Source: Candidatus Woesearchaeota archaeon (GTDB lineage: Archaea; Nanobdellota; Nanobdellia; Pacearchaeales; GW2011-AR1). From it: a stretch of 35,711 bases of DNA. The stretch spans positions 1-35,711 of the forward strand of contig CAZHCL010000010.1 in assembly GCA_964530955.1 (NCBI GenBank), written 5' to 3'. Below are positions 1,364-8,919 of the stretch, in pieces (the stretch's first letter is position 1; every line of letters starts with the position of its first letter). The position numbers were made by a program, and so were the translations under genes. A model generated the notes under the pieces. That model had not been told where the DNA came from. It saw only the letters and a list, made by a program, of their open reading frames with translations, and made no database searches.

Positions 1364-1458
1364 TTATAGACACTTTGTAGACAAAAGCTAGATTATAGAC
1401 TAAGTAGTGGCTACCGATTCAGTCCATAAAATCAGAGATATCCATAAAGTGTCCACAA
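1364..1458. repeat. dyad-symmetric array of six TTRTRGAY boxes around a GTGGCTACCGA-containing spacer
   Basis: TTATAGAC 1364, TTGTAGAC 1375 and TTATAGAC 1393; inverted GTCCATAA 1422, ATCCATAA 1440 and GTCCACAA 1451; spacings 11/18 and 18/11; all three pairs are centred on position 1411. Confidence 0.85.
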
Positions 1459-1596
1459 GCACAAAAGAAAGATATTTAAAGCTTTAACACCTTTTTTAAT
1501 TGTAAAAGAGAAGTGTTGTTTCTTGATGGTCTTAATTAGTTGTTGCTTTGCATATTTTGTCTTAATCCTTGAAAGGTAACAAGGATTTATAAGCAT

Positions 1597-2736
1597 GTGA
1601 AACTAAAGTTTCACATGGTTGATATGTATAAAGAAATTGAAGTTTCATTTGAGAAGCAATTTGAACGAAAACTCCAGAAGGCACTGGACTACTCTCGTTT
1701 CAAAGAGAGAGGATTAAAGTCTAATCCTTTTAATATTGATTTTAGTGGAGACCCTTGGAAAGTGAAGGTAGGTCGAGATGAAGAATTAATTACTGGGATT
1801 GAAAGCCTTAAGGAAATGGCAGACAAGAATACCAAGATGCTCAATATCTTGGCTCCACATGGTTATGGAAAAACAACCTATGAAATTCTTCTTCATAGTT
1901 TGGCTATTAAGTACAATTCAGACTTAGGATTTGAAAAGATTTTATTTATTAGAAATACAACAGAATTTAAACAGTCATTTGTTGATAGTTCATTCACAGC
2001 AGATTCTGATGGAGAAATTATAAAGATACCTCCTAGACTATTTACAGAACTGAAAATGACTAACAAGCCTGCTCTACTTTTTATTGATGATGCAGATATA
2101 ATATTTCAAGATAATCCGAAGACCTTTACTGATGTAACTAATTTAAACAACGTTTTGATAGTTGCTGCCTGGAACAAATCTGCTTGGGAAAGAGCAAAGC
2201 ACATACCCGATGTTAAATTCCCTTCGGTGGAGATAATTATGCTTAATAGACTTTCAAACTCGCAATGTGCAGAAATGGTCCAAAAGAGAATTTCTGAATT
2301 CAAAATGAGCAAGAGAGCAGATAATCTTTTCTCGCAGGACGTTACAGAAACTTTAGCAAGATTAGCCAATGGTAGCCCTCATCGCATTATTCGATTAGCT
2401 AAACGCCTTTTAAGTTACATGCTAGATAAAGGTCTTTTAGAAATCAAGGTAAGCCCAGAGTTTGATGAATTTATAGCTAGTGCAGATGACATTAGTTATG
2501 AAAACTTGAAAAAGAAAATGGTTTCCTTGAGTGAAACTCAAAGGAAAATAATTGAAGAAATGAAAAAAATAGTCGAAGCGGATGCAACTAAAGTAGGAAC
2601 TTTGGTAGGAATAACAAGGGTTGGCGCTATGAAACAATTACATGAGCTTGAAAAAATAGGAATGGTAGTTTCAGTTACAAAAGATAAAAAGAAAATATTT
2701 CAACTAAGAGAGGAGATAGAATATGGAACAGAATAA
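1597..2736 (+). CDS. AAA+ ATPase with C-terminal winged helix (Orc1/Cdc6-like architecture, divergent)
   Basis: Walker A APHGYGKTT, Walker B LLFIDDAD, helical lid NGSPHRII, wHTH LSETQRKII...ATKVGTLVGITRVGAMKQLHELEKIGMV; the true start may be ATG 1615 or 1624. Confidence 0.75.
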   Translation: MKLKFHMVDMYKEIEVSFEKQFERKLQKALDYSRFKERGLKSNPFNIDFSGDPWKVKVGRDEELITGIESLKEMADKNTKMLNILAPHGYGKTTYEILLHSLAIKYNSDLGFEKILFIRNTTEFKQSFVDSSFTADSDGEIIKIPPRLFTELKMTNKPALLFIDDADIIFQDNPKTFTDVTNLNNVLIVAAWNKSAWERAKHIPDVKFPSVEIIMLNRLSNSQCAEMVQKRISEFKMSKRADNLFSQDVTETLARLANGSPHRIIRLAKRLLSYMLDKGLLEIKVSPEFDEFIASADDISYENLKKKMVSLSETQRKIIEEMKKIVEADATKVGTLVGITRVGAMKQLHELEKIGMVVSVTKDKKKIFQLREEIEYGTE

Positions 2737-2795
2737 AACAAAATTATCAACATATCATGAACCTTTTGGATTGTACTTATTTACTACATGAGGTA

Positions 2796-2878
2796 CACGC
2801 CGGCTAGACTCCGTTTGTTCAAGGAGGAAGCCGGACGTGGGCTTTGGGTTATGCTCCATTCGTAGAGGCGCATAATCC
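2796..2878 (+). ncRNA. putative structured RNA or 3' element with two GC-rich hairpins
   Basis: Hairpin 1: CACG/CGTG, CCGGCT/AGCCGG and CTCC/GGAG stems (2796-2839). Hairpin 2: GGGTTATGC/GCATAATCC (2846-2878) with one G-U pair favouring the + strand. Confidence 0.4.
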
Positions 2879-2908
2879 TTTGTCGACTTGACTATGATAC
2901 CATTGTTG

Positions 2909-3049
2909 CTATTTTGGCTTGATTTTTAAATCTTTCTTAATGAGGTCTTCTAAATAATCTGAAATATCTTTGCCAAGCTGAATGCAATGAATCTTTACCT
3001 CTTTCCAAAGAGCCTCATCAATCTTTAGGCTGGTCGATTTGCGAGCCAT
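2909..3049 (-). CDS. ribbon-helix-helix (CopG/Arc/MetJ-like) DNA-binding protein, 46 aa, not in the ORF track
   Basis: Manual translation MARKSTSLKIDEALWKEVKIHCIQLGKDISDYLEDLIKKDLKIKPK*: TSLKID strand, then two helices with the typical S..LE.LI pattern; TATA-like TTTATATA on the minus strand at 3071-3078. Confidence 0.8.
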   Translation of the reverse strand: MARKSTSLKIDEALWKEVKIHCIQLGKDISDYLEDLIKKDLKIKPK

Positions 3050-3054
3050 AGAGT

Positions 3055-3137
3055 TATAGTGTTATGGTGGTATATAAACATGTATGTTGTAGACTAATAA
3101 GGTTTAAATAGTGTTATGGGGGTATAGTGTTATGGTG
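3055..3137. promoter_or_regulatory. three ATAGTGTTATGG direct repeats (candidate RHH operators) in the divergent RHH/transposase promoter
   Basis: Exact 12-mers at 3056-3067, 3108-3119 and 3124-3135, flanking TATA-like boxes at 3071-3078 and 3103-3110. Confidence 0.65.
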
Positions 3138-3175
3138 TTATACAAACGAATAAATTCATATTCACAGGAGAAAAA

Positions 3176-4222
3176 ATGCCTTACTTTAGAAAGCCGATAA
3201 AATCATGGGAAATTAAGAAGCAATGGTTGAAGCAGTTAGAACAAGAAATAGAGAATAAGGAAAAACAAACCACTCTTTATGCTGGTGACGGAGAGATTCT
3301 TGCCAGAAGAGTTATGCCTTTGGATAAACCAGAAAAGTCTCTTGAGCAGGAAAAAGATAAGTTTATTGTAAATATGTCTGATTTCATAGACAGAATTGCA
3401 TTTGAAGAATTACAGGAATACGGACGACCTAGATTCAATTTAAGAGATATTATGAAATGTCTTTTGGTCATGAGTTACAACTGCATGTCTTACAGAAGGT
3501 CTGAATCTGATTTCAGGAGAATGAAAGAAGAGGAAGTTATTAGCGAGATTCCAAAGAAAAGTGTATTAAACAAATATGCCAATTCATTAGAAATTAACAA
3601 TCTCTTAGAAAAGTTAATACAATATTCAGCAACTTTCTTTGTTGAGAATGAATCTACTGTAATTGTAGACTCGACATGGTTTGCAATAAGAAACAAATAT
3701 TATGGCGGGTATGAAACCGTACATGACAAAAGAGGAGCTTCCCTTGATAAAGTCAGAAAGTTGCACATTTGTTGTTTGAAAAATAGCAAAATAATTTCTT
3801 GTGCTAAAGCTACGAAAGGCACTGAAAGTGACTTTAATATGTTTGAAGAGTTGGTCAGAACGACTATTAAAAGAGGATTCAATATTTCCAGATTGTTAGC
3901 AGATGCAGGATACAGTTCGAGAAATAATTATCTTATTTGCAAGGAATTAGGAATACTTAATGCTTTTATTGATTTCAAGAAGAATTCTTCAGTCAAGAGA
4001 AGCAAGAGCGCTCTTTGGCGTGAAAGAGTTAGGATGTGGAAAGAGCAGAAAGAACTCTGGCATGAGACTTATAGATTTAGAGTTGTGATTGAGGGCTTTT
4101 TTAGTGCAATAAAAAGAAAAGGTTTGATATACCTTAGGTCTAAAACTGAGACTGCACAGGACGTTGAATTGCTTTTGAAAGTTTTGGTTTACAATGTTTG
4201 TGTCATTGGGAGGTATACATAA
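3176..4222 (+). CDS. DDE transposase (IS5/IS4 superfamily, DDE_Tnp_1-like)
   Basis: IVDSTWF, RKLHIC, LLADAGYSS and W...YRFRVVIEGFFSAIKRK..LRSK..Q..E give a complete D-D-E triad; AGGAG upstream of the ATG. Confidence 0.88.
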   Translation: MPYFRKPIKSWEIKKQWLKQLEQEIENKEKQTTLYAGDGEILARRVMPLDKPEKSLEQEKDKFIVNMSDFIDRIAFEELQEYGRPRFNLRDIMKCLLVMSYNCMSYRRSESDFRRMKEEEVISEIPKKSVLNKYANSLEINNLLEKLIQYSATFFVENESTVIVDSTWFAIRNKYYGGYETVHDKRGASLDKVRKLHICCLKNSKIISCAKATKGTESDFNMFEELVRTTIKRGFNISRLLADAGYSSRNNYLICKELGILNAFIDFKKNSSVKRSKSALWRERVRMWKEQKELWHETYRFRVVIEGFFSAIKRKGLIYLRSKTETAQDVELLLKVLVYNVCVIGRYT

Positions 4223-4232
4223 AGATTAAAAG

Positions 4233-5087
4233 ATGAGAATATTAAATAAAATCATGGAAAAAGAAGAAGACGTTTTAGAGAGTATAAAAGAAATAAAAAA
4301 GGTTTTAGGTAAACCTTATTTTGAAACGAAAGATTTTATTTTGTATAATCTAGATTGTGTAGAGGCTATGGAAAAGATAAACAAAGAGATTATAAATCTG
4401 ACTATCACTTCTCCACCCTACAATATAGGCAAAGAATACGAAGAGGTTATGCCTGTTAATGAATATGTTAAATGGTCTCAGACATGGATAAACTTAATTC
4501 ATAAGATAACTAAAAATAACGGGTCATTTCTCCTAAATGTAGGTTATTTAGAAGTACCCAAAAAAGGTTTTGCTGTTCCAATTCCATATCTATTATGGGA
4601 CAAGACGCCTTTTTATTTAGTACAAGAGATAGTTTGGAATTATGGTGCAGGAGTGGCTACTAAATATACGTTATCTCCTAGAAATGAAAAAATCTTATGG
4701 TATACAAAAGATATGGAAAATTATACCTTCAACTTGGATGAAATTAGAGATAAAGATGTCAAATATCCAAATCAAAAAAAGAATGGAAAATTAAGATGCA
4801 ATACACTAGGGAAAAATCCTTCAGACGTTTGGCAAATTGCGAAGGTTACTTCTGGCACAGACAGGGCGTCAGAAGAAAGAGCGCCTCATCCAGCTCAATT
4901 CCCAGTAGATATGATTGAAAGAGTTATAAAAGGATTCAGCAATAAGGGTGATTTAATATTAGACCCATTTATAGGTTCTGGAACGACTGCGGAGGTAGCA
5001 ATAAAAAATGGAAGAAAGATTATCGGTTTTGAGATAAATAAGGTATATTGTGATTATATTATTGAAAGAATTAAAAAAATAGAATAA
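4233..5087 (+). CDS. type II DNA methyltransferase, N4/N6 beta class (M.ScaI-like)
   Basis: TSPPYNIGKEY, WNYGAG, HPAQFP and DPFIGSGTT; strongly resembles M.ScaI as I recall it (LGKPY.ET, VKYPNQKKNGKL). Confidence 0.92.
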   Translation: MRILNKIMEKEEDVLESIKEIKKVLGKPYFETKDFILYNLDCVEAMEKINKEIINLTITSPPYNIGKEYEEVMPVNEYVKWSQTWINLIHKITKNNGSFLLNVGYLEVPKKGFAVPIPYLLWDKTPFYLVQEIVWNYGAGVATKYTLSPRNEKILWYTKDMENYTFNLDEIRDKDVKYPNQKKNGKLRCNTLGKNPSDVWQIAKVTSGTDRASEERAPHPAQFPVDMIERVIKGFSNKGDLILDPFIGSGTTAEVAIKNGRKIIGFEINKVYCDYIIERIKKIE

Positions 5088-5096
5088 GTCTAACAA

Positions 5097-5687
5097 TTAT
5101 CTTTTATAAATTACAACTAATTTATATTTGTCTGCAAGGTTGCTTACACTGGCTTGTTGACCTGTTTCAGAAGATTGAGAAATCCAGTCAGAATGGTCCA
5201 ACCACCCAAATCTAATTAATCTTATTTGAGGATTAGTTGATTCGTCAAACTTCTCAAAGTTTACTGCAAGATAATATCCGCTTTTATCCTTCTTTGATGA
5301 ATTTCCTTTCTGTCCATAGCTTCGGTTACCAAAAATTTTATTTTTATTAGAAGACGTTTTTATCTCTACAGAATAGAAAGGGTTCGGCAAATAAACTAAG
5401 TCTTTCTCCCCAACATCTTTTTCCTTTTTCCATAACTTAGGGTATTTTGCCTTAAGTTTTAGTGGGATAAGTTCATGCAAAAAGAAGCCCATTATTTGAG
5501 GACTTGGAAATATGTCTTTTCCTATCTTAAAATGCTCTGTGCCTATGCCAGAATCAAATATGCTTTTCCAAGACTCAAGAGTAGCATCAGCCATATCTCT
5601 AAGCGACAATGGGTGTTTTTTAATAAGGTCTTGAGTTATAGAAAGCCAATTCTTCTCGGGTTGTCCTTCATATGGAGATGCGACCAT
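5097..5687 (-). CDS. type II restriction endonuclease, ScaI family
   Basis: SPY.G, PSPQIMGFFLHELIP, EKDLVY, SVEIKTSS, IFGNRSY, GYYLAVNFEK, RFGWLDHSDW and TGQQAS are characteristic of R.ScaI; convergent with the MTase. Confidence 0.85.
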   Translation of the reverse strand: MVASPYEGQPEKNWLSITQDLIKKHPLSLRDMADATLESWKSIFDSGIGTEHFKIGKDIFPSPQIMGFFLHELIPLKLKAKYPKLWKKEKDVGEKDLVYLPNPFYSVEIKTSSNKNKIFGNRSYGQKGNSSKKDKSGYYLAVNFEKFDESTNPQIRLIRFGWLDHSDWISQSSETGQQASVSNLADKYKLVVIYKR

Positions 5688-5718
5688 AAATACGGGAGAA
5701 TTAGATGATATTTAGACT

Positions 5719-5793
5719 TTATGGACAGTTTGTGGATGGTTTTAGGTGATTGTGGATAAGATGAGATTTTATGGACTGACTTGTGGCTACCGA
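5719..5793. repeat. half-array of four TTRTGGAY boxes followed by the GTGGCTACCGA core
   Basis: TTATGGAC 5719, TTGTGGAT 5730, TTGTGGAT 5750 and TTATGGAC 5769; core at 5783-5793; 5719-5737 is 15/19 identical to 1364-1382. Confidence 0.85.
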
Positions 5794-5805
5794 AAGATTT
5801 ATATA
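5790..5805 (+). promoter_or_regulatory. BRE-TATA promoter of the AbrB-cdc48 operon
   Basis: CCGAAAGA-TTTATATA matches the archaeal BRE/TATA consensus, 54 nt upstream of ATG 5859. Confidence 0.6.
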
Positions 5806-5858
5806 TCCGTGTATACGAGATGTGTATATACAAAAGATAACTTATACCTAAATAAAAA

Positions 5859-6383
5859 ATGACAGACATATTTGATGCGAGGATTTTATGCAAGAAATGC
5901 AACAAGGAAATGAAGCCTACTATTGTGAATCGCAATGGCTTGGAACTTAGAGCAATAGAATGTCCTAATTGCAAAGATAAAATAATTCATCCTGCTGACC
6001 TTAACGGGCTTGAGCAATTCAGAGACTTGAAGGATAAAAAATTTAATGTTAAACTGAGAATGGTTGGGAACAGCCATGCGATTTCTATACCAAAAGAAAT
6101 AATTGATTTCATGAGTGACAGGCACAAGGATATGCGCAGACAAATGGATGATATGGTAAGATTATGGTTTGATGATTTTGATACTCTGAAAGTAAGTTTC
6201 TTTGATGAAGAAATGAATCATGGTGCTGGGAGTATGCATAGTTCAGATGATGGAAACATAAAAAGAAGGGTTCATGACGATGGAAGAGGTAATATAGATG
6301 TTGTTGAAGAACAAACTTTAAATGAGCCCAACACATCCATCAAAAGAATAAGAATAAGAAAAATAAGGAGACAAGATGATTAA
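5859..6383 (+). CDS. zinc-ribbon plus AbrB/MazE-type DNA-binding domain protein
   Basis: CKKC...CPNC zinc ribbon; VKLRMVGNSHAISIPKEI swapped-hairpin signature. Confidence 0.8.
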   Translation: MTDIFDARILCKKCNKEMKPTIVNRNGLELRAIECPNCKDKIIHPADLNGLEQFRDLKDKKFNVKLRMVGNSHAISIPKEIIDFMSDRHKDMRRQMDDMVRLWFDDFDTLKVSFFDEEMNHGAGSMHSSDDGNIKRRVHDDGRGNIDVVEEQTLNEPNTSIKRIRIRKIRRQDD

Positions 6384-8919
6384 ACAAAATAGTAATGGTA
6401 ATGTTAGATTAAAAGTTGTAGAGGCATTGCAGGATGATGCTTACAAAGGCATTGCTAGAATAGATCCTAATTTAATGAAAGCTCTCGGTTTAGGAAGAGG
6501 AGATGTTGTTTCTATAAAAGGAAATAGAGAAACGGTTGCAATAGTTGATAGAGCTTATCCTGCTGATGTTGGAGAAGGAATAATAAGAGTTGATGGTTTA
6601 ATAAGAAGAAATGCAAAAACTGGAGTTGGAGAACTTGTTTCTGTCAAAAAGGCAAATGCAAAGCCTGCTCAGAAAATAATTATTGCTCCTGCACAACAAG
6701 GAATAATGGTTCATGCTGACCCTGAAATGCTTAAAGGAGGGTTACTTGGAAGAGCAGTTGTCAAGGGAGATATAATTTCTTTGGGAGGAGTTCAAAGAAG
6801 AAGAGATTTGATGAGCGAAGGATTCCCAGAACTGTTTGGCGGAGACTTTAATGATTTATTCGGAGGATTTGGATTTTCTGGAATGCAGCAGATAAAGTTT
6901 GTTGTTGTTTCTACTTCTCCGGCTCAGCAATGTGTAATAAGTGAAATTACAGAAGTAAATCTTAATTCTAAGGCGATGGAAGTTAGCGAAGAGACTGCTC
7001 CTGATGTTACCTATGAAGATATTGGAGGATTAACTGAGGAAGTGAGGAAGATAAGAGAAATGGTTGAACTTCCATTAAAGCATCCTGAAATTTTTGATAA
7101 ATTAGGAATAGAACCTCCAAAAGGAGTTATTCTTCATGGTCCTCCTGGAACAGGAAAGACATTGCTTGCAAAAGCAGTTGCAAATGAAAGCGAGGCTAAC
7201 TTTATTTTGCTCAATGGACCTGAAATAATGAGCAAGTTTTATGGAGAGAGTGAAAAAAAAGTAAGAGATATATTTGAAGATGCTGAGAAAAATGCGCCTT
7301 CAATTATATTCATTGATGAAATAGATGCCATCGCCCCTAAGAGGGAAGATGTTCAGGGCGAAGTTGAGAGAAGAGTTGTTTCACAATTGCTTACTATGAT
7401 GGACGGTCTAAAGAGCAGGGGAAGAGTAGTAGTTATCGGAGCTACAAATAGAATTAATTCAATTGACCCTGCATTGAGAAGACCAGGAAGATTTGATAGA
7501 GAAGTTGAAATTTCTGTTCCTGATAAGCACGCAAGATTAAACATACTCAAGATTCATACAAGAAACATGCCAATAGTTCCTCAGGTTAAGAAGAGCTATC
7601 TTGAAAGAAAAATAAATAATTTGACTCAAAGTTTGAAGATATTGGAAGAAGAGTTAAAGAAAATAAGTGATTCTGAAAGGAAAAAGGAAACTGAAAAGAG
7701 AATGGAAGAAATTGACACTCAGCTCTCTTATCTTAAGCCTCTAATGACTCAACTTATTGGAGAAGATAAAAAAGATGAAAAGACATTTAAGAGTTTCCCT
7801 GCTAGAGATCAGGATAATTTGAGATCTATTTTCAAGGAAAGTGCTCTTGAAGATCTTGCTGCAAAGACTCATGGTTTTGTCGGAGCCGACTTAAATGCTT
7901 TGACAAAGGAAGCTGCAATGAATGTTCTAAGGAAAATACTTCCTAGTTTGAAACTTGAAGAGGATAAGGAAATTCCAAAAGAAGTTCTTGATAAAATATT
8001 TATAACTAATGATGATTTTGAAGAGTCATTGAAAGTTGTAAGACCTAGTGCAATGAGAGAAGTTCTTGTTGAAACTCCAAATGTGGGATGGAATGATATT
8101 GGTGGTCTTGATAAGACTAAACAGGCGTTGAAAGAAGCTGTTGAATGGCCTATTCACAGAGCTGACGATTTCAAGAAATTGGGAATAAGAGCTCCTAGAG
8201 GAGTTTTGCTTTATGGACCTCCTGGAACAGGAAAAACCCTACTTGCAAAAGCAGTTGCAAAGGAATCAGAAGCTAATTTCATAAATGTTAAAGGACCTTC
8301 ACTGCTTAGCATGTGGGTTGGAAAGTCTGAGGAAGGAGTAAGAAAAGTATTTGAGAGAGCGAGACAGGTTTCTCCATGTATAATTTTCTTTGATGAAATA
8401 GATGCTCTTGCAGGAAGAAGAGGCGTTGAAGCTGGAACAAAAGTTACTGAAAGAGTTTTGAATCAGCTTCTTGCGGAAATGGATGGACTTGAAGGATTGA
8501 AAGATGTTACTATAATTGCTGCTACAAACAGACCAGATATGCTTGACCCTGCTTTGTTAAGACCAGGAAGATTTGACAGAATAATTCTTGTTGATGTGCC
8601 TGATGCAGAATCCAGAAAGAAAATACTTGAAGTCCATACAAAGAATACTCCTCTCGATAAGGATGTAAACATAAATGAAATAGTCAAGCTTACTGAGGGT
8701 TTTGTTGGAGCAGACATTGAAGGTTTAGTTATTGAAGCTGCTATGAGTGCTTTAAGAGAAAATAGAAAAGTAGTAACCAAAGCAGACTTTAGCGCGTCTC
8801 TTCAAAGAGTGACTCCTTCGGTTTCGATTGATACGGCTAAGAGATACAAGAAGATGGAAGAATATTATCTTAAGAGCGCAAAGGCAGGCGTAGAAGTGGG
8901 ACCGTTATATACTGGTTAA
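6376..8919 (+). CDS. cdc48: CDC48/VAT-family AAA+ ATPase
   Basis: N-domain plus two AAA modules ([15 protein letters not shown] twice, [36 protein letters not shown]). Confidence 0.97.

Follow-up and report, generated by a model that had tools for sequence, protein, structure and literature searches.

Genes and ends of the element

The window analysed here, that is, the whole stretch of 35,711 nucleotides, is an entire contig (C10) from a Candidatus Woesearchaeota genome of 761 kb in 26 contigs, with 34% G+C. Near its left end a block of genes is found between two arrays of short repeats, which we call element B (1416–5782), next to a related and older element, element A, whose right end lies left of position 1407. 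Element B starts with a gene for an Orc1/Cdc6-like AAA+ ATPase of 373 amino acids, with Walker A and B motifs and a C-terminal winged helix (1615–2736, + strand), followed by a GC-rich structured element of two hairpins (2796–2880, + strand). A small Arc/CopG-like ribbon-helix-helix (RHH) regulator of 46 amino acids, with a match to a PHROG Arc-like repressor (2909–3049, − strand), is divergent from the gene of an IS5-like DDE transposase of 348 amino acids (3176–4222, + strand; PF01609, E 7e-15), and the divergent promoter region between both (3048–3147) contains repeated operator-like TATAGTGTTATGG boxes, a repeat family within the window. The last two genes encode an N4/N6 DNA methyltransferase, which starts 10 nt past the transposase stop codon (4233–5087, + strand; PF01555, E 3e-57), and a restriction endonuclease of the ScaI family (5097–5687, − strand; PF09569, E 3.5e-77). 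These domain and profile matches bear out the cargo of initiator-like ATPase, RHH gene and restriction-modification (RM) pair listed in a preliminary description of this DNA.

The transposase is apparently intact, with a DDE_Tnp_1 catalytic domain, the DDE triad and the Y-x2-R-x3-E-x6-K signature, in such a way that D165, D243, E306 and Y299, R302, K313 are invariant in nine transposase sequences. No tyrosine or serine recombinase domain was detected in the scanned open reading frames (ORFs) of the block, and the DDE transposase is its sole recombinase, as previously proposed. Simple insertion sequences (IS) have only a transposase in around 1–1.5 kb, whereas this element carries, in 4367 bp, also the ATPase, the RHH protein, the methylase, the restriction enzyme and the RNA-like element. 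We conclude, with a probability of roughly 0.87, that 1416–5782 is a unit transposon, consisting of an IS5-like DDE insertion sequence with passenger genes. The block is a genuine selfish element with an ordinary DDE transposon mechanism, and its ends, its duplication, the homology of these ends to those of relatives, the mobility of the relatives, the gene content and the accessory status are demonstrated.

A blind scan for 9-bp direct repeats abutting inverted ends produced a single solution in the first 7 kb, namely GTGGCTACC at 1407 and 5783 with inverted ends matched at 14 of 16 positions, and none of 200 shuffles gave any. The two copies of GTGGCTACC, the left one at 1407–1415 (also read directly in the sequence) and the right one at 5783–5791, constitute a perfect 9-bp target-site duplication. 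The ends of element B are 18 bp long, 15 of them perfect, and are accompanied by three TTATGGAC-type boxes at the left and four at the right. The left end (1416–1458, + strand) has the terminal repeat GATTCAGTCCATAAAATC and inverted boxes at 1440 and 1451, and the right end (5719–5782, + strand) has four TTRTGGAY boxes and terminates in GATTTTATGGACTGACTT. Both align with the ends of the element at the related locus L048 (loci and contigs read for comparison carry L numbers, and genomes G numbers), with 80% identity over 41 nt on the left and 85% over 75 nt on the right. Since the duplication is perfect and the ends are intact, the insertion of element B appears to be recent. The ENA contig L024 (5914 nt), an independent assembly of element B, has its first base at window position 1388, which falls within element A's right end; this start could reflect population variation leftward or low coverage.

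Clusters of at least three TTRTRGAY boxes occur in the whole genome only at 1364–1458, with three forward and three reverse boxes spaced by 11, 18, 29, 18 and 11 nt, and at 5719–5776, with four forward boxes. The alignments indicate that the outer half of the left array is the right end of element A (1364–1406, + strand), which has three TTRTAGAC boxes, terminates in ...GACTAAGTA, and can be aligned, except for one missing box segment, to the right ends in element B, L048 and L046, with TAGAC in its boxes where those of element B have TGGAC. The body of element A runs off the contig, and includes a TylF-like methyltransferase gene identified by domain search (571–1329, − strand) and an ORF without family match (60–503). 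The block had been delimited before as a discrete selfish unit at 1364–5793; its discrete nature stands, and its limits move to 1416–5782, leaving the boxes at 1364–1406 outside.

The same description interpreted the arrays as attachment sites of a site-specific integrative element, attL and attR, in such a way that recombination between 11-bp cores would release a circle of 4376 bp with a symmetric attP-like site. The repeats on which it was based were reproduced, both the 25-nt direct repeat (1393–1417 and 5769–5793, 21/25 identical) and the perfect 15-bp inverted repeat (1419–1433 and 5765–5779). The 11-nt identity, GTGGCTACCGA, occurs in the 761-kb genome only at these two repeats, and together with the symmetric six-box array at 1364–1458 it does give an attP-like look; a P-O-P' arrangement of the left site would fit a tandem integration. 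However, the block encodes no integrase, and homologous elements are flanked by unrelated duplications of 9–10 bp with no common core, in such a way that the arrays are terminal and subterminal repeats shared by relatives that have their own duplications. The length of the identity equals the 9-bp duplication of the family plus a coincidental GA, as the left end starts with these two bases, also in L048, and so does the host transcription factor B recognition element (BRE) at the other side. In addition, the 9-bp core is missing before the AbrB promoter in the same-genus loci that were read, with only CTACC retained in G003. Nothing requires the core recombination or the circle, and we consider such an integrative element extremely unlikely. 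The empty-site sequence predicted from it would equally be expected from excision of a transposon.

Two further alternatives for the limits of the element were rejected. GTGGCTACC is not part of both right ends, as in L048 the homologous right end finishes at ...GACTGACTT, with its own duplication coming next. A small separate IS formed by only the RHH and transposase genes was also discarded, as no inverted ends were found around 2909–4232, and the short gap between the transposase and methylase genes counts against it as well.

On the right side of element B, an AbrB-like gene (5859–6383, + strand; weak match only) and cdc48 (6376–8919, + strand; domain search) form a conserved operon. In a translated comparison, the synteny with three same-genus genomes begins around 5850 and extends rightward, and the upstream neighbour of the AbrB-like gene in those genomes is a homologue of a gene on a small contig of this genome, C23. 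Of the 16 same-genus genomes, 15 have the AbrB-like gene, and no box cluster was found in the fifteen loci with this homologue. This rules out that the arrays are conserved operators or an origin retained by relatives, and a search for relatives that keep the arrays and lack the cargo thus found no arrays in these loci. A search of 40 relatives, of which 16 belong to the same genus, did not detect the ATPase gene, which is not a core gene, in agreement with the preliminary description. No tylF-like gene was detected in any of the 16 same-genus genomes, and the ancestral neighbour of the AbrB-like gene lies on C23, so that the tylF side, taken before as host flank, belongs to the accessory element A. 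Because neither the ATPase nor the tylF-like gene was found in these relatives and synteny starts only at the AbrB promoter, the whole segment from 1 to around 5791 is accessory.

Bases 1–22 of C23, in reverse complement, start with CATTAGGTCCATTAAAAAGGTT and match the left end of L048 at 12 of 16 positions by eye, with a flank that does not match GTGGCTACC; the gap between C23 and the window contig probably holds at least one further element end. The intergenic spot upstream of the AbrB-like gene is an insertion hot spot. In G010 it contains 4.2 kb of unrelated DNA (L022, 10020–14270), and in G003 a 1.3-kb insert (L023, 4850–6190) with a pair of small ORFs which, judged from their translations, resemble a SpoVT/AbrB-type antitoxin and a RelE-like toxin.

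Mobile relatives and exchangeable cargo

A word-indexed protein search detected around 195 homologues of the transposase, and the few with a named source are labelled as Nanoarchaeota, Pacearchaeota, uncultured archaeon or, in one case, Parcubacteria. The nearest three are 79, 75 and 73% identical to it, and the contigs of the 79% and 73% relatives, which were read, are virus- or plasmid-like. The 73% relative, L048, reads ...ATTCAAGAC, GATTCAGTCC...GGACTGACTT, ATTCAAGAC..., with its own 9-bp duplication ATTCAAGAC, and the window has the same register, GTGGCTACC, GATTCAGTCC...GGACTGACTT, GTGGCTACC. The loci L046 and L047 share an element of 5174 bp with 99.98% identity; the two copies lie between different flanks on both sides and have separate duplications of 9–10 bp, TTATATACA(T) and ATAATGGTT(A), so that this relative has moved. 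Both the L046 and the L048 elements moved without the ATPase. For eight more transposase loci (L050–L057), no boundaries were found within flanks of 1.5 kb.

The order RHH gene, transposase, methylase and restriction enzyme is common to the three clade-1 elements seen (the window, L046 and L048), and homologues of the RHH protein keep the same position in L025, L026, L046 and L048, with repeats analogous to the TATAGTGTTATGG boxes also in L025 and L026. The genes in the RM slot are different: an N6_N4 methylase with a ScaI enzyme in the window, an N6_N4 methylase with an unnamed protein of 348 amino acids in L046, and a C5 methylase with a HaeIII enzyme in L048. The gene combination is thus a mosaic of exchangeable cargo and not a fixed new family, as had been suggested before, since RM types are swapped between close relatives.

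In the window, the adjacent RE_ScaI and N6_N4_Mtase genes correspond to a type II RM system of the ScaI type. The ScaI site, AGTACT, is not avoided in the genome (100 sites observed and 101.6 expected), which fits either a recent arrival of the system or a different RM specificity. Several GC-rich palindromes are under-represented in the genome.

The Orc1/Cdc6-like ATPase

The ATPase has an AAA+ core with Walker A, Walker B and sensor motifs. The best sequence match of its family profile among solved structures was Sulfolobus Cdc6-1 (2qby_A, E 3e-11), and its alignment with the canonical Orc1/Cdc6 that the host genome encodes separately gave a probability of 93.8% in hhalign. In Foldseek the top matches were ORC1 and Cdc6 with a template modelling (TM) score of around 0.4, from a weak query model (mean predicted local distance difference test, pLDDT, of 60), with TnsC, RuvB and RFC also among the fold matches, and an Atlas model of the protein gave TM scores of 0.58–0.61 against ORC1-type proteins across its whole length. 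The family models of the Cdc6 lid and winged helix (PF09079, PF22703) did not match it. Its sole Pfam match was to nSTAND_NTPase5, weak and under the cut-off, and members of its family match generic helix-turn-helix models of the MarR or TrmB type. As modelled, the protein looks like an Orc1/Cdc6-type ATPase, yet it is not assignable as Orc1/Cdc6 proper.

Eight close homologues of this ATPase were found, and 61 cluster representatives in an exhaustive search. The homologue in L026 is inside a transposon with ends GG(T/C)(C/T)TTGCACAGA and a 9-bp duplication, CGCAAGGAG, whose transposase shares only 29% identity with that of the window. A third kind of transposon with the ATPase, L028:5208–9802, has ends TGAATTGTTGC... 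and TGAATTGTTGCGTTAG with the duplication CTAATTGAC, contains genes for an IS240/IS6-like transposase and for a C5 methylase, and sits within the transposase gene of another IS. The homologue in L025 is probably also within a bounded transposon, the contig ending early, and a distant homologue lies beside Hjc and ligase genes in a virus-like contig, with no transposon boundaries around it.

The architecture of the ATPase, and the inverted boxes immediately ahead of its gene, followed by AT-rich DNA, could also be explained by a captured plasmid-type replicon, in which the dyad at 1364–1458 would be an origin with ORB-like boxes (origin recognition boxes) for the ATPase, and the right array a second half-origin. 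Against this, the identical type of box forms the ends of the L046 and L048 elements, which have no ATPase, the outer three boxes belong to element A and are of the different TAGAC sequence, and the homologues in L026 and L028 are found in transposons with unrelated ends. Moreover, the inverted halves are separated by only around 21 bp, which are not AT-rich. We regard this replicon as very improbable.

Since the closest transposase relatives moved without the ATPase, we read it as a passenger cassette of the unit transposon, an assignment that we favour with some reserve. In the alternative, the transposon is the same and the ATPase is its working partner, acting as a target selector or regulator like TnsC, MuB or IstB. 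The gene order ATPase, small DNA-binding gene on the opposite strand and transposase is found with three different transposases, the fold matches include TnsC, the ends have repeated boxes, 3 and 4, in the fashion of Tn7, and the element is placed in a precise target register. However, those relatives without such an ATPase are the ones with transposases 73–79% identical to that of the window, insertion at promoter edges is also seen with 57-bp MITEs (miniature inverted-repeat transposable elements) and plain IS copies of a sister clade, and the distant homologue in the virus-like contig is outside of transposon boundaries. A working partnership of this kind appears unlikely to us.

Two signals accompany the ATPase gene. 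The palindrome CATGTGAAACTAAAGTTTCACATG (1594–1617, + strand) spans the start codon of the ATPase gene just past a TATA-like box, and the motif is found in every homologous locus read, with a GTNAC-spacer-GTNAC palindrome over or just before the start codon, after a TATA-like box, in L025, L026, L028, L032, L033 and L036. From its sequence and position, it is likely an autoregulatory operator or a translational hairpin. The two-hairpin element at 2796–2880 is also conserved at L026:3044–3128 and L036:1328–1398, where eight predicted pairs keep their pairing through two-sided changes, a covariation based on these three sequences, and its G-U pairs favour the + strand. Neither Rfam nor tRNA searches gave a match to this segment. 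In the same place, L025 and L032 have a different conserved hairpin, and L033 has a tRNA-Gly gene.

Insertion at a promoter edge

Element B is located immediately upstream of the BRE-like GAAAGA and the TATA box TTTATATA of the AbrB-like/cdc48 operon (5792–5805, + strand), identified by same-genus comparison, and most same-genus loci that were read have a CGAAAG-TTTAWATA promoter upstream of the AbrB homologue. The order at the right side is the terminus of element B, the 9-bp duplication, GAAAGA and TTTATATA. The termini of elements A and B are both 9 nt before the BRE/TATA of the operon, and element A was so placed before element B arrived. The stretch from the TATA box to the AbrB-like start codon contains one or two palindromes of the GTATAC type, in the window (5806–5830) and in most same-genus loci read, and by their sequence they are likely an autoregulatory operator of the AbrB-cdc48 operon.

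The ends of a sister IS clade (GTGCAAAGCC) occur in the same register at the AbrB promoter in G007, G009 and L033, and also before a tRNA-Ser gene in L025. They precede as well TBP-, RpoH- and L21e-like genes, judged from translations, including 57-bp MITEs with their own duplications. Among 96 sites in 121 family genomes, 14 had a TATA-like 8-mer starting exactly 15 nt past the sister-clade terminus, with a background of 0–2 per offset.

The 57-bp MITEs, found in L086, L134, L143 and L127, consist of two GGCTTTGCA... inverted ends, and one side of each is 15 nt before a TATA box. Duplications of 9 bp flank those of L086, L134 (two copies) and L143, and the flanks of L127 are unlike; the duplication in L086 is CCACTCTTA, upstream of the L21e-like gene. 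A solo end-like sequence, GTGCAAAGC(C/T), precedes the TATA box of the AbrB-like gene by 15 nt in L004 (G007), L017 (G009) and the Hainich contig L033 (4118–4127). These solo sequences could be remnants of the sister clade or one old inherited insertion.

In the clade of the window, elements A, B and, off by one, L047 fit the promoter register, and L048 does not. Exact ends of this clade gave 8 matches in the 121 family genomes, two of them those of the window, versus 12 for the control, and of the six in other genomes two at most look real. Promoter targeting by the window's clade is thus based on few cases (A, B and L047).

Several observations weigh against the interpretation of 1416–5782 as an IS5-like unit transposon with passengers. 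The best NCBIfam model for the transposase, NF033579 (IS5), scores 92.5 bits, under its cut-off of 140 bits, and other IS5, ISNCY and IS1182 models score below it. The outermost 3 nt differ between the two ends (GAT and AAG), and no exact empty site for element B was found in any genome searched, because the flank formed by element A is unique to this genome; a site empty of element B would read ...GACTAAGTA-GTGGCTACC-GAAAGATTTATATA. The landing of element B flush against the end of another element would be unlikely by chance and would need targeting, and the recurrence of the ATPase, in three different backbones, ahead of a small DNA-binding gene and a transposase may indicate that it exceeds a cargo role.

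With the unit transposon as the preferred explanation, the IS5-superfamily transposase would recognize the terminal repeat and presumably the subterminal boxes of the TTATGGAC type, and would insert the element through a 9-bp staggered cut, giving rise to the duplication GTGGCTACC. The small divergent RHH protein is most likely a repressor of the shared promoter region, acting at its repeated operator boxes, and the ScaI-type RM pair, as passengers, may stabilize the element and defend the host. The ATPase and the structured RNA-like element would travel as cargo, the former most likely unnecessary for transposition. Element B inserted beside the right end of the older element A, with the 9 bp just before the BRE/TATA of AbrB-cdc48 as its target, and this promoter is left intact.

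The IS903 group, a bacterial group of the IS5 family, has short inverted repeats at its termini and duplicates 9 bp of the target. Element B is similar in its DDE_Tnp_1 domain, DDE and Y-x2-R-x3-E-x6-K motifs, short inverted ends and 9-bp duplication, and the sister-clade end, GGCTTTGCAC..., presumably resembles the GGCTTTG start of IS903. However, element B has 4.4 kb with five passenger or regulatory genes, versus one ORF in around 1 kb, repeated subterminal boxes (3 left, 4 right) and a divergent RHH gene, and it is found in a DPANN archaeon with relatives in virus-like contigs. The PIF/Harbinger elements of eukaryotes have an IS5-related transposase, a Myb/SANT partner, subterminal repeats and a 3-bp duplication; element B shares with them a weak DDE_Tnp_4 match, a small DNA-binding protein and subterminal repeats, whereas its candidate partner is an RHH protein and its duplication is of 9 bp. 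With Tn7, Mu and IS21 it has in common a DDE enzyme together with an AAA+ ATPase, several boxes per end and asymmetric ends, but its transposase is of the IS4/IS5 type and not rve, the duplication is of 9 bp and not 5 bp, and its type of ATPase, with an Orc1/Cdc6-type winged helix, is dispensable in close relatives. Compared with archaeal Orc1/Cdc6 and ORB origins, the ATPase has the AAA+, lid and winged-helix architecture and a remote profile and fold similarity, whereas it has no Cdc6_C or Cdc6_lid Pfam match and the neighbouring boxes are transposon ends. Ty3 of yeast integrates at promoters, at a fixed distance from the TATA bound by TBP and a TFB-type factor; the end of element B is also at a fixed distance from a TATA box, although it is a DNA transposon, with a putative contact with such factors.

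Bacterial RM genes have been described between terminal inverted repeats with an 8-bp target duplication in Xanthomonas and Neisseria (Furuta, Abe and Kobayashi 2010, PMC2853133). In contrast to these mobile RM units, element B encodes its own transposase and regulator in an archaeal host, and the RM type is swapped at one slot between its close relatives. In archaea, a 2019 survey included composite passenger-carrying DNA transposons among the classes that were undetected, and described archaeal IS-like transposons as having 1–2 genes (Krupovic et al., PMC6563490), whereas element B, in a DPANN archaeon, has a transposase and passengers (six genes) within a single pair of inverted ends. Full-text literature searches found no paper describing an exact placement of transposons before BRE/TATA. 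The mechanism and the RM cargo are individually known, and a passenger-carrying DDE transposon is unusual for archaea.

A wider proposal, which we offer as doubtful, is that these elements form an undescribed class of archaeal cargo transposons that would select sites at the upstream border of core promoters, with the 9-bp target placed right before BRE/TATA, presumably through recognition of TBP/TFB-bound DNA, and would shuttle interchangeable RM systems between hosts and viruses, spreading a cassette of Orc1/Cdc6-like ATPase and structured RNA that might seed replication or regulation at its landing sites or aid in target choice. Element B and its relatives show that cargo transposons are present in DPANN archaea and virus-like contigs, and its exact placement before BRE/TATA is a cargo-bearing case of landing at a promoter edge. 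The three RM types in one cargo slot provide a concrete route for defence and addiction genes between archaea of tiny genomes and their viruses, and the presence of an Orc1/Cdc6-like gene on three transposon backbones bears on the spread of extra initiator genes, and perhaps origins, in archaea.

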